Shown: one piece after another, positions 287 through 58,665 of the stretch
Layout of the letters: the number at the start of each line of letters is the position of its first letter
How positions within the stretch are numbered: position 1 is the first letter of the stretch
DNA from: Eledone cirrhosa
Lineage: Eukaryota
Length of the DNA stretch: 64,000 nt
Direction of reading: 5' to 3'
NCBI GenBank assembly: GCA_964016885.1
Contig: OZ024765.1
Span: forward strand, 2,542,001 to 2,606,000
Position numbers and translations under genes: made by a program
Notes under the pieces: model-generated
Seen by the model: the letters and a program-made list of their open reading frames with translations, nothing else
The model's database searches: none
What the model was told of the DNA's origin: nothing

Positions 287-462
287 CGAAGGAGGTGTGG
301 TAAGGAACCAGGTGTACCATAACGCACCAGAGTACTCAATACTTAAGGTAGTAGAGTGGGTAATAGGAAAAAGTATGACCCCGACTGCAGAGCTCAAGCT
401 ATTCCTGGTCCAGAAATAGCCGTCGAAACCGCTTGAGCTCTGCCGACGGGGTCATACTTTTT

Positions 463-506
<44 letters not shown>

Positions 507-14443: not shown

Positions 14444-14578
14444 CGAAAGAACTGTGGTAAGGAACCAGATGGACCATAACGCACGTTCGGGTATTTATCT
14501 ACCAGGCTAAAAATTCTTATTTAGTCTAGAATTAGCCGTCGTAACGGCTTGAGCTCTGCCGTCGGGGTCATACTTGTT

Positions 14579-14682
<104 letters not shown>

Positions 14683-15228
14683 TGTACCCCGAAACACCAC
14701 CCGTAACCCCAACGACCCCATTACCCCGTTACAATACCACCGAACATCAATCAAGCCCAAACAGAACAGGTAAATGAAGATATCTGCTATATTTATCACC
14801 TTTCAGACAAGTTCTTTGCTGTAAATACCAATACAAGATTCTCTTCTCCAAGAGTATGTTTCTTATTTCTTAAATACCAAACCTTCTTCATTCACAGAGA
14901 CGTATATGGAGTTATATACGATATCGTTAACGTGCAGTAAACGTACATACGTCTCGTCGTTCGTGAGAATACAGTACCTTCCCGAGATACATACATGTAT
15001 GTGTATATATATATATATATATATATAGTGGTAGAACACTGGAAGGTAATATCCGTAGTGGTAGAGCACTCAGTCCATGGGACGAGTTAGGTAGAAGTGG
15101 TTACACAACAGTTAGTTCACCATACCGAGAACAATTGTCTCACCTTTGTTCTGTCCAACGCCATCTTCTTCGCAAGATGGCGTTGGACAGAACAAAGGAG
15201 AGGCACAAAACAAAGAAAAGAATCCCCA

Positions 15229-19575: not shown

Positions 19576-19811
19576 CCAACACATGTAGAAATACAGTAAC
19601 ACACATATATACACCAACACATATACATACAAAGAGAGACAGAGATGCACGGAGACTAACAGACACAACCCTCCAACTTCCTGACACTCCTAAAATGTAT
19701 TTTTCTGATGAAGGACGAACGTCCCATAGATTGAGACATAGTTTGAGGAACAGTTCTGGACCCCAAAACCAATGGTCGCACATACATGTTAAGTGTATGA
19801 AACTTTGTTTA

Positions 19812-19870
<59 letters not shown>

Positions 19871-19875
<5 letters not shown>

Positions 19876-20068
19876 GGAACAAATAAGACCCCGACGGCTG
19901 AGCTCAAGCCGTTTCGACGGCTAATTCTGGACAGAATTAGCCGTCGAAACGGCTTGAGCTCAGCCGTCGGGGTCTTATTTGTTCCTATTACCCACTCTAC
20001 TACCCTAAGTATTGAGTACTTTGGTGCGTTATGGTCCACTTGGTTCCTTACCACATTTCCTTCGTTAT
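19871..20068 (+). mobile_element. Family A small element (HHR 3' half plus tail) with fold-back palindrome
   Basis: Perfect 59-bp arms at 19871-19990, then tail cccactctactaccctaagtattgagtac...ttccttcgtta. Other copies at ~283-467, 14441-14582, 28425-28610, 28621-28822, 38525-38678, 40972-41143 and 44125-44210, mostly abutting (TA)n. Confidence 0.75.
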
Positions 20069-20368
20069 ATATATATATATATATATACCAAAAGCTTAAC
20101 ATTATTTGTCTAAGCGGACAGTACTTGATTTAGGAGTCGCAGAAACCCAAATGCTGGATTTTCACCAACCATCCAGGGGTCCGAATTACTTGGTCGTTTC
20201 TATGGCTGTGCGGATAATGGTTTAACCCTCGTCTCAGTGTGTTTGGCCTTTTAACGTATGTTGTAGCTCTGGTTCGTTAGAATCTATTGAGTGCTTGCCA
20301 CACATCTCGGAAGTTGGTTTTCGCTAATTTCCAATAGCTGAAATACGATTCTCGCTAATTTATATTTG

Positions 20369-20405
<37 letters not shown>

Positions 20406-20493
20406 ATGTAAAAGGTAAACAGAAATAACAACACAATCGGTACAGTATATGGAAGGGATATATTAGGTTAACGCTTGATATCGCAGGAAGAGG

Positions 20494-20531
20494 TTCTTAA
20501 CGTTTCGGACGCTAGTCCTTCATCAGAAGAA
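20494..20531 (-). ncRNA. Minimal Penelope-type hammerhead ribozyme (palindromic stem III)
   Basis: Minus strand reads TTCTT-CTGATGA-a-GGAC(tagc)GTCC-GAAAC-GTT^AAGAA. Perfect 5-bp stem I; loopless ACGT stem III as in dimer-forming PLE HHRs. Confidence 0.8.
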
Positions 20532-28414: not shown

Positions 28415-28827
28415 CTTCACACCATGAGTTCACCCGGCCGTTTCGACAGCTAGATCCGAACACCGAACAGTTCGGATCTAGCTGTCGAAACGACCGGAGC
28501 TCAGCCGTGGGGGGCCCTGACACTTTTCCTATTACCCACTCTACTACCCTAAGTATTGAGTACTCTGGTGCGTAATGGTCTACCTGGTTTCTTACCACGT
28601 CTTCTTTGTTATATATATATATAACGAAGGAAATGTGGTAAGGAACCAGGTGGACCATTACGCACCAGAGTACTCAATACTTAGGGTAGTAGAGTGGGTA
28701 ATAGGAACAAGTAAGACCCCGACAGCTGAGCTCAAGCCGTTTCGACGGCTAATTCTGGACTGATTAGTCCAGAATTAGCCGTCGAAACGGCTTGAGCTCA
28801 GCCGTCGGGGTCTTACTTGTTCATATA

Positions 28828-37812: not shown

Positions 37813-38677
37813 ATAATAATAAACTTTAATCTGTTATTTTAATAAATATATATATATTTATATATATATATATATAATTTTTTATTTTATAGAAGGAGCT
37901 TCTACAGGACTAGTACTGTTTCATTCAGATGAAATCTTCAGCTTCCTGTCTCATGGTCGGGTCGTTGGCGACTAAACTGGCAACCCCACCAAGGTTTCTT
38001 GGTGAGGAGGGTGACTTTGGACATCCTGCAGGACTAAAAACAAGACCTGTCAAAGGGCAAAGGAGCTCTTAAGAGTCAATGGCCATCCAAAATCACAGGG
38101 AGAGATGACCCCTTAGCCTTTGTCAAGGCTTAATTCTAGGAGAAGGAAAACTCTGATATAACACCTGCAACCCTGATGGTATCCAATGATGCTGACTTGT
38201 TCTTCTTTTTGGTAAATATCATCTTGGTTAAGAGAGTGGGACTGGCTTTGTGCAGTGCCTTTGCTCACTATAAAAGCTTCACGGCACAGGCATTGCTTTA
38301 TATCTGGAGATATCTCTGCACTTGTCATCACATATACCATGGGCCCAGCACTATATGTCAATAATGGTCACAAGTGGGGTGTTTGTGCTAGAGTTTTCAA
38401 GTCGGTGGCTGGACTAAAAAGTCTCGTTCAGCGCATCGGTAGGGGTTCTCCTACATGGATATAAAGTAGTGGCCGTACTCGAAAACGAGTTGGCAGCCAC
38501 CATATATATATATATATATATATATAATGAAGGAATTGTGGTAAGGAACCAGATGGACCATAACGCACCAGAGTACTCAATACTTAGGGTAGTAGAGTGG
38601 GTAATAGGAAGATGTATGACCCCAACGTCAGAGCTCAACCCGTTTCGACGGCTATTTCTCCAGCAATAGCCGTCGAA

Positions 38678-39187
38678 AGTAATGGAAAGGACAATGGACA
38701 CATTGTTTCCTTGGTCTGATCTGATGATCAGCTCCTTTCTTCTACCAGGAGTTGTGACTGACAGATAGTATCAGTAATGGAAAGACCAATGGAGACATTG
38801 TTTCCTTGGTCTGATCTGATGATCAGCTCCTTTCTTCTGCCAGGAGTTATGACTGACAGACAGTATCAGTAATGGAAAGACCAATGGAGACATTGTTTCC
38901 TTGGTCTGATCTGATGATCAGCTCCTTTCTTCTGCCAGGAGTTATGACTGACAGATAGTATCAGTAATGGAAAGACCAATGGAGACATTGTTTCCTTGGT
39001 CTGATCTGATGATCAGCTCCTTTCTTCTGCCAGGAGTTATGACTGACAGACAGTATCAGTAATGGAAAGACCAATGGAGACATTGTTTCCTTGGTCTGAT
39101 CTGATGATCAGCTCCTTTCTTCTATCAGGAGTTGTGACTGACAGATAGTATCAGTAATAGAAAGACCAATGGAGGCATTGTTTCCTT
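38678..39187. repeat. 95-bp tandem repeat, ~5.3 units, strongly self-complementary
   Basis: cattgtttcc recurs at 38701, 38796, 38891, 38986, 39081 and 39176. Confidence 0.95.
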
Positions 39188-40478: not shown

Positions 40479-41140
40479 GTATATATATATATGTATATAT
40501 ATATGTATATATATATGTATATATATATGTATATATATATGTATATATATAATATAAGCTTTCAGCGTATTTTTGACTAAAGAAATGTTTAGCCTGATAG
40601 TGGGGTTTAGAACCCTCGGAGAAATGGAAAAAGATGAGTATTGACGTACATGGGAGTCGAACCCACACCTTTGGTTATCCAGACCACTGTGCTACCATTA
40701 CACCAACACATCACCCATGGGTGTTGGTGTAATGGTAGCACAGTGGTCTGGATAACCACAGATGTGGGTTCGACTCCCATGTACGTCAATACTCATCTTT
40801 TTCCATTTCTCTGAGGGTTCTAAACCCCATTATCAGGCTAAACATTTCTTTAGTCAAAAATACGCTGAAAGCTTATATTTCTAATTTCAAACTTGCTCAC
40901 TGTTTCAAAACATACTTATATATATATATATATATTATATATATATATATATATTATATATATATATATATATAGGAACGAGTAGGACCCCGACGGCTAA
41001 TTCTATCCAGAATTAGCCGTCGAAACGGCTTGAGCTCAGCCGTCGGGATCCTACTCGTTCCTATTACCCACTCTACTACCCTAAGTATTGAGTACTTTGG
41101 TGCGTTATGGTCCATCTGGTTCCTTACCACATTTCTTTCG

Positions 41141-41173
<33 letters not shown>

Positions 41174-41431
41174 TCCCGGGGTCAATCGGGGGTAACCACA
41201 GTAAGTAAGGTACTTTGTTGAATACACCCTATTAGTAGGGTGTATTCAACAAAATTTCATATAGAAATGGCTTCCACATGACTAGAACTGTTTCGTTCGA
41301 AAGAAACAATTCTAGTCCTGTAGAAGCCATTTCTATATTAAATTTTAATATATGTATATATATATATATAGTAATAATAAATGTGAAGACTAAAATGCGA
41401 AGAGAGCTCGATTAGGATTATATATATATAT

Positions 41432-51278: not shown

Positions 51279-51529
51279 AAAGTTATATTTAAATTGTTGG
51301 GTTAACAACGAGTAAATATTTATAACTGATATAAAAGCACTCAACAAGTATTTGGAGTATATTTATGATATTAAATAAATGGAAACTATATTTATAAAAC
51401 CATATTTATTTCATTATATATATTTCAGGGATATCATATATGATATTCAGGGATATCATATATGATATCCCTGAAATATATATAATGAAATAAATATGGT
51501 TTTATAAATATAGTTTCCATTTATTTAAT

Positions 51530-51592
<63 letters not shown>

Positions 51593-57708: not shown

Positions 57709-58665
57709 CATACATATATATATATTTATATACATATACATATATGTATGTATATCAGCCTCCAAACCCATGCAAGCGTGGAAGATGGACATTAAACGAT
57801 GATGATGATGATGATATATATACATACATATATACATGCATATATATTTTTTTTTTATACATATACACACACACACATATATATATATTTATATACATAT
57901 ATATACACACACACACATATATATATATATATAAATTAGCCTTCAAATCATTTATAATATCTTACACATGTTCCAAGAGAGTCAGGACATGTGTAAGAAA
58001 TTAAATATGACTTAAACACTAATTTTTCCATATATATATTTGATTATATTAGCTGTGTTTTTATGGCTGCCTGTCCAACACCCCCTAAATCTACCTTTCC
58101 TTCAGAGTAATACAAAATATAAACACATTGAACTAATTCGGAAAAGACCTGGCAATTATATACAATTCTCTATATACTTTTGAGCTTTGTATATATAGTT
58201 TTACCTTTACTATATATATATATATATATAAATGAAGTAATTCCGTCGGAAAGGTCCAGGAAAAAAGAGTGCTCTATGTAGGCTACAGAGCTTATTAGTT
58301 ATGTAATAAACAACATAAGATAATTATTTCATTTACTAGTGGTTTCTTGAAAGCAACCAAAATTGCTTTCAATCATCAGAATGAAAAAATCCTGGTGTCT
58401 TTATTGACAGTGGAAATCCACTGTCAATAAAGACTCTTTTCCTATTACATATGTGTGTGTGGTTGGTGTTAGGAAGGGCATCCAGCCGTAGAAAACCCGC
58501 CAGACAGTCCCGAGCAAGACAACCAATGTTGCCTCAAGTGGGACAATTCCCGTCCAGACCCATGCTAGCGTGGAAGATGGACGTTAAACGATGATGATGA
58601 TGATGATGATGATATATACATATATATATAGAGAGAGATATACATATATGAGTTCAGATTTAACT

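Follow-up and report, generated by a model that had tools for sequence, protein, structure and literature searches.

Abundant hairpin insertions of a Penelope-like retrotransposon in Eledone cirrhosa and a predicted transcription start inside a hammerhead loop

Introduction

What is a perfect palindrome that carries half of a hammerhead ribozyme, and how was it formed? The question is raised by positions 19871-19990 of a 64,000-nt stretch of the Eledone cirrhosa genome (contig OZ024765.1, positions 2,542,001 to 2,606,000; referred to here as the window). An earlier note had attributed this palindrome and similar ones to a snap-back of cDNA primed by stem II of the ribozyme itself, which would replace the catalytic 5' half. 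In descriptions of Penelope-like elements (PLEs), an inverted 5' copy and a tail at one end only are the usual arrangement (PMC8557442), and palindromic junctions have been explained by self-priming on an antisense template (PMC3846280). The formation of PLE tails and inverted ends and the role of the hammerhead are stated there as open (Craig et al., 2021, PMC8557442).

Results

Anatomy of the palindrome

Positions were numbered from the hammerhead cut site, which lies after window base 19968, with +1 as the first base 3' of the cut. The palindrome was confirmed, with perfect 59-bp arms, a 2-nt centre and a fold z of -24. Its right arm does hold a hammerhead 3' half, of type I: it contains GAAAC, a stem III of 4-5 bp whose loop is itself palindromic, GUC and a stem I strand rich in G. 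The extent first assigned to the unit was too short: the right arm continues as a tail to 20068, and (TA)n borders both ends. The order is (TA)n, an inverted tail-less arm, a direct arm with an ~80-nt tail, and (TA)n (Table 1). The two outer ends are fixed at +20 and at +98/+100 from the cut site, with TA adjoining each; bases 19871-19872 also match the inverted arm, through shared TA letters. The hammerhead 5' half is absent from this copy and its catalytic strand is missing from palindromic copies, so the earlier statement that short copies lack this half was right. Judged by its sequence features, the palindrome belongs to a Hydra-type Penelope-like retrotransposon, a short copy of which was inserted into a (TA)n repeat. 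The basic layout of this insertion, an inverted 5' copy with a one-sided tail, is already known for PLEs.

Table 1. Features of the 19871-19990 insertion and of related copies in the window
Feature	Position	Strand	Remark
(TA)n target repeat, left flank	19816..19872		
Inverted tail-less arm, +20 back to -40	19873..19932	-	Mapped on natural long copies
Head-to-head junction	19930..19932		Inverted arm to -40, tailed arm from -37, one base in common
Direct arm, -37 to +98/+100 of the pseudo-LTR	19932..20068	+	
Hammerhead 3' half	19938..19974	+	Stem II 3' strand, GAAA, stem III, GUC cut site, stem I 3' strand
~80-nt tail, single arm only	19989..20068	+	In full-length copies continues into the ORF region
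(TA)n target repeat, right flank	20067..20088		
Second family A pair	297..467		Tailed arm on -, tail-less arm longer
Family A tail-less arm	14454..14583	+	Extends to -77, so that the parent's true loop 2 is visible; an inverted tail fragment is attached
Sister family B pair	28430..28598		Tailed arm starts at -41
Family A pair	28626..28821		Both arms end near -43
Older family A copy with remnant inverted arm	38529..38678		
Family A pair	40972..41139		Stem III region skipped by the inverted arm

Palindromes are a known class of artefact, and short-read contigs were examined for the same ends. Contigs from three runs of one sample, which may be the assembly's own, showed loose ends at -45 (the palindromic join), -41, +20 and +100. 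The junctions vary between copies and hold untemplated bases, the arms differ by point changes, and all 19 pairs found by the core alone consisted of one tailed and one tail-less arm. An assembly or library artefact is therefore hardly credible.

Copies in the window and in the genome

Five further places in the window had been listed as copies with the same axis. All five hold head-to-head copies; the one at 28430-28500, however, belongs to a diverged sister family (family B) with a different stem II and loop. The arm at 14454..14583 was absent from that list. No family A copy in the window has CUGANGA, as had been claimed. The older tail at 38529, used as a DNA query, gave no matches.

Genome-wide (3.0 Gb), there are 36,161 exact matches to the 29-nt hammerhead 3' half and 23,746 to a 31-nt tail word, and 842 loci have the junction length and type of 19871-19990. 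Because blind stretches held about 8 pairs per 400 kb, extrapolation gives, as a rough figure, some 60,000 hairpins, or ~0.2% of the genome. Short head-to-head insertions in TA repeats number tens of thousands.

Other repeats were seen in the window. At 40637-40793, two tRNA-like arms (Rfam tRNA, 49.8 and 42.7 bits) face each other in a palindrome and share a non-tRNA tail, also present in locus L186; this may be a tRNA-derived repeat that arose through head-to-head joining of a similar kind. A canonical CUGAUGA core marks the hammerhead-like motifs of another family, which lie at ~20480-20526 (- strand) and at 19706-19730, the latter without the GAAA half. Perfect inverted repeats outside family A, with 18-83-bp arms, lie at 15143-15198, 41214-41253, 58397-58434 and 51364-51535, and the one at 58397-58434 ends in letters identical to family A +13..+20.

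The parent element

The Penelope-like origin was supported by long copies, which carry a reverse transcriptase (RT) plus a C-terminal GIY-YIG-like motif. We read the real upstream sequence from the 5 of the first 30 loci that were not short palindromes. At L061, two pseudo-LTRs 3,581 nt apart flank a frameshifted ORF and an inverted copy precedes them; partial pseudo-LTR tandems, the inverted 5' copy and the tail, all features of endonuclease-bearing (EN+) PLEs, were found. YRDD and VIY..YIG motifs occur in the ORFs of L061 (frameshifted) and L063, and natural translations show RWR, DKT, YRDD, CxCx5C, a C-terminal GIY-YIG-like motif, CxxC-E and CxH. The parent protein had 89 homologues at E<=0.001, the named ones including Argonauta and Octopus; a Pfam scan of the parent pieces and three homologues returned zero families.

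Scored against the published clade description, the motifs, the C-terminal endonuclease and the (TA)n target point to the Hydra clade as the probable place of the parent. That description (Craig et al., 2021, PMC8557442) shares with it a C-terminal GIY-YIG, RW[KR], DKT, the CxCx5C linker, CxxC, CxH, the (TA)n target and a hammerhead in the pseudo-LTR. The four Hydra hammerhead rows of its supplement have CUGA cores and a 4-9-nt loop 2, whereas family A has U3:A8, a 37-39-nt loop 2 and a 3.6-kb period. Assignments to Naiad and Nematis were rejected on domain order and motifs, and identity with Hydra-1_Obim on hammerhead sequence. A second, more distant Hydra-like GIY-YIG fragment adjoins the parent element at L061:7923-9065 (- strand). 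Loci L342-L346 (G000:C3:214.146-214.148 Mb) form a five-copy tandem of a 274-bp unit, -62 to +213, with a retrozyme-like layout but without the catalytic 5' half.

The parent hammerhead ribozyme

The ribozyme is not missing from the family: long copies hold a predicted type I hammerhead with stem I, a UUGANAA core, G10.1-C11.1, stem II and stem III. Stem II is a 6-bp helix, its 5' strand at -74..-69, that closes a loop 2 of 37-39 nt. The minimum free energy fold of L061 is a three-way junction, with a weak z of -2.1, and one other copy misfolds; across 14 copies, 89.6% of cells were paired. Between families A and B, which have different loops and an unchanged core, stem II shows two-sided changes, each counting as about one evolutionary event. 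Rfam returned zero matches for the parent ribozyme, and for the window no hammerhead among the best 150 of 480 rows, which were mostly microsatellite-driven miRNA.

Exact 5'-half counts genome-wide were 5,763 for U3:A8, 1,993 for the C3.A8 mismatch and 12 for C3:G8 (CUGANGA). The first 100 matches to an open-core pattern all had A at position 8, with position 7 varied; counted by eye, 77 were intact U3:A8 and 19 were C3.A8 cores. The absence of CUGANGA, which had been taken as a sign of ribozyme loss, is uninformative in a family whose core is UUGANAA. The refutation test proposed with it, a lack of relatives with CTGANGA, would likewise mislead because the core is U3:A8. The C3.A8 ribozymes (e.g. 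L094, L213) may be impaired, and with 1,993 exact copies of their 5' half, such impairment may not block spread.

A U3-A8 core has been reported for Schistosoma PLEs (PMC4209133). The minimal PLE hammerheads described there (Cervera and de la Pena, 2014) share type I, U3-A8 covariation (as in the U3:A8 copies here), an unpaired base close to where stem II begins, G10.1-C11.1 and a palindromic loop 3. Unlike them, the ribozyme here has a real 4-5-bp helix as stem III and a long loop 2, predicted to contain a start site (see below).

Arms end within loop 2, downstream of the catalytic half

To map arm ends, we used the first 100 exact tail matches on contig C1, a set unbiased for the 5' side. 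Tailed arms ended at +8..+20 in 9 copies, -5..+7 in 10, -33..-6 in 12, -47..-34 in 56, -99..-48 in 4 and beyond in 9. The per-base stop rate was 0.112 at -47..-34 versus 0.006-0.009 in four other bins, with a peak at -41 (14/100). In a second set of 120 tail matches (3 edge cases skipped), 62 ended at -47..-34. Side peaks at -44, -37 and -35 mean that trimming or A-tailing is needed to explain the ends. An adjacent inverted arm was found in 69 of the 91 short copies, with a like distribution of ends; the other 22 were solo, several of them retaining decayed arm pieces and some starting at -41 beside unrelated DNA. An excess of arm ends at the cut site was not supported (10/91 and 13/109 copies).

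These data agree with a non-random axis, as had been proposed, the inner ends being concentrated at -34 to -47. They do not agree with an axis at the stem II loop as it had been drawn, since the 14-bp 'stem II' of that drawing is the palindrome itself; the ends are spread over the 3' part of the parent's loop 2, and many arms are shorter still. Although the axes do lie within the span of this loop, priming by stem II needs a cDNA that reaches -74 and the whole loop 2 as an unmirrored spacer at the centre. Genome-wide, such a junction had one exact match, with an unrelated spacer. Short arms rarely reach the stem II 5' strand (-74 to -69), only 13 of the 100 tailed arms pass -47, and long palindromes have axes hundreds of bases off. 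Snap-back priming by stem II with replacement of the 5' half is accordingly very improbable, and the loss of that half is better put down to run-off at an RNA 5' end.

Untemplated G before position -41

Position -41 is the A of a TCAGT/TTAGT motif, which we take to resemble an initiator consensus. In family B the loop has diverged, and the motif (at -43..-38) and the boundary are retained. Long copies have C or T at -42, and G occurs in 0 of 58 distinct arms; G at -42 in parent context has 5 exact matches genome-wide. Before -41, in contrast, the genome has G 5,781 times versus A 959 times. When the 1,252 and 371 cases that a partner arm could supply and the 5 parent-context cases were subtracted, 4,153 G remained. 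A control before -36 gave 852 G versus 702 A. In a matched test on the fetched loci, G:A was 24:6 at -41 versus 19:30 at other ends (p 4e-4); the 100-locus set alone was not significant (11:4 versus 7:10, p 0.09). Some pairs have G on both arms (L216, L234, L025), and the letters 5' of the untemplated G are heterogeneous.

An untemplated 5' G can arise when a reverse transcriptase copies across the cap. The G before -41 is likely what cap copying would leave, and the genomic copies point to a predicted, capped transcription start at the -41 A, inside hammerhead loop 2. An untemplated 5' G has been reported in L1 insertions (PMC4729875), and a Penelope start site within the pseudo-LTR (PMC2377424). 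A TATA box upstream of -41 was dropped as a candidate, being present in one subfamily only and lacking in the other subfamilies and in family B.

Alternatively, -41 could be another RNA end or stop, such as a processed, uncapped end, a protein-bound block to the RT or a 3' splice site. The motif resembles a splice acceptor, with a loop ending in a pyrimidine run plus AG, a Penelope 5' UTR intron is described as ending at the hammerhead (PMC4209133, PMC2377424), and most full-length copies cross -41 seamlessly. However, the heterogeneous sequence 5' of the G leaves no constant exon, the G bias is specific to -41 and family B has no pyrimidine run. Six mini-tandems, in which a unit starting at -38..-44 lies behind another that runs 136-317 nt in, treat -41 like a template end, as if the RT ran off and then jumped. 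We therefore regard these alternatives as improbable.

Among copies that run far into the ORF, only 1 of 19 starts near -41 and 16 of 19 have a long seamless upstream pseudo-LTR. With a start at -41, these copies require either another source of templates, such as read-through or circular RNA, or efficient strand jumping.

Junctions and haplotypes of paired arms

In the pairs found by the tail, some have both arms tailed (L068, L071, L081, L089). Of 69 pairs, 24 had a longer tail-less arm, defined as at least 3 nt without counterpart in the tailed arm, 14 had a longer tailed arm, and 31 were ambiguous; a second set of 83 pairs gave 28, 16 and 39. Copying of the tailed cDNA cannot produce the 24 tail-less arms with extra nucleotides. 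The 69 junctions comprised 16 with an overlap of at least 3 nt, 14 with 1-2 nt, 8 blunt joins and 31 insertions, with oligo-A and short templated fill-ins among them. Long untemplated A/T runs at the junctions of L071, L216, L252 and L303 suggest terminal transferase activity on cDNA ends.

Variants mirrored in both arms had been regarded as specific to each copy. They proved to be subfamily haplotypes common to many copies; the conclusion that the insertions were independent events was judged right. The two arms had identical haplotypes in 36 of 43 pairs (shuffled mean 9.1) and 52 of 58 (shuffled 22.1), and a few pairs combined two haplotypes (L122, L241, L306). Priming of two cDNAs on the two target strands therefore needs the same RNA or source for both; snap-back predicts identity too.

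Such a snap-back would shift to the run-off end the self-priming that Arkhipova et al. (2013) put forward on the evidence of palindromes where inverted copies meet (PMC3846280): a single cDNA would run off at -41, snap back at a local microhomology and be extended, and an endonuclease would trim one arm at +20. The shared haplotypes, the 16 longer overlaps and a near-palindrome at -45..-32 in family A are in its favour, and pairs with the longer tail-less arm are allowed if either arm can be trimmed. Against it, 31 of 69 junctions hold inserted bases and 8 are blunt, and no loop remains where arms join perfectly at self-complementary words of 4-8 nt (L066, L075, L076, L079). The pairs with G on both arms or with two haplotypes also oppose it, and family B keeps the boundary without the near-palindrome. 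We consider snap-back at the run-off end unlikely.

Discussion

The hairpin is real and abundant, and its axis, linked to a predicted start site with an untemplated G, is a new aspect of a known insertion type. We favour, as the probable origin, two cDNAs primed on opposite target strands that would run off a start inside loop 2 and then be end-joined; this twin-primed run-off probably fits the genomic sequences better than stem II priming does. RNA would start at the A at -41 of the initiator-like motif in the pseudo-LTR hammerhead loop 2. The two nicked (TA)n target strands would each prime a cDNA, with one RT beginning at +98 and the other at +20; in most cases their templates would be a single RNA or RNAs with a common source. 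Both RTs would halt at the cap, adding C and often A's, and the two cDNA 3' ends would be trimmed and end-joined, giving variable centres. Under this proposal, the RNA begins downstream of the 5' catalytic half, which is why short copies are without it, and only the 3' pseudo-LTR would yield a whole ribozyme.

A more tentative extension accounts for the long copies. The promoter start in loop 2 would give the RNA a half-ribozyme 5' end, and capped linear RNA would be copied into strong-stop-like cDNA pairs, accounting for about nine-tenths of insertions and for the perfect hairpins. Long and full-length copies might come from a second pool, in which the catalytic half of the 3' copy would act on both RNA ends, closing a circle. 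We hold this combined scheme to be possible rather than probable.

Several steps have counterparts in known systems. The two pieces of an L1 twin-priming event do not overlap. The twin-primed run-off resembles L1 twin priming in that two target ends prime two cDNAs, but here the two pieces overlap and form a hairpin; twin priming is mentioned in PMC4729875. It also resembles LTR minus-strand strong-stop DNA in running off near the RNA 5' end, without a tRNA primer or an integrase. The PLE inverted pseudo-LTR (Arkhipova et al., 2013, PMC3846280; Craig et al., 2021) shares an inverted 5'-truncated copy by the 5' end, a tail at one end only and a junction palindrome (PMC3846280). Here, however, the tail is ~80 nt versus 30-40 nt in the published PLEs, and most insertions are only ~200 bp; the boundary is a fixed run-off with an untemplated G, whereas earlier authors proposed either self-priming on an antisense template or resolution by the endonuclease. 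The Poseidon PAc protein (Frangieh et al., 2024, PMC11167929) is described as cleaving and extending both strands of an AT-rich target in vitro and as starting reverse transcription on unprocessed RNA, from two internal sites that bound the tail, without a need for hammerhead cleavage. PAc belongs to another clade and was studied in vitro, and the text drawn on here neither accounts for an inverted arm nor locates a start site, whereas the Eledone cirrhosa evidence is genomic. In a literature search at listing level, we found no publication that links the palindrome axis to a start site inside the hammerhead.

The U3:A8 core shows why searches for CUGANGA overlook a very abundant ribozyme family. 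Thousands of copies provide base-level in vivo evidence linking the two in vitro RT starts to the two arms, and they place the predicted RNA 5' end at -41. Octopus is reported to have an unusually large number of near-perfect dsRNA loci and the strongest hyper-editing, in a study that leaves repeats out of its analysis (PMC5625713); a link of the hairpins to this editing is putative, the octopus data being from another species. If the twin-primed origin is correct, the genome would be an in vivo record of twin-primed PLE integration, and the hairpins would be a large source of dsRNA for A-to-I editing.
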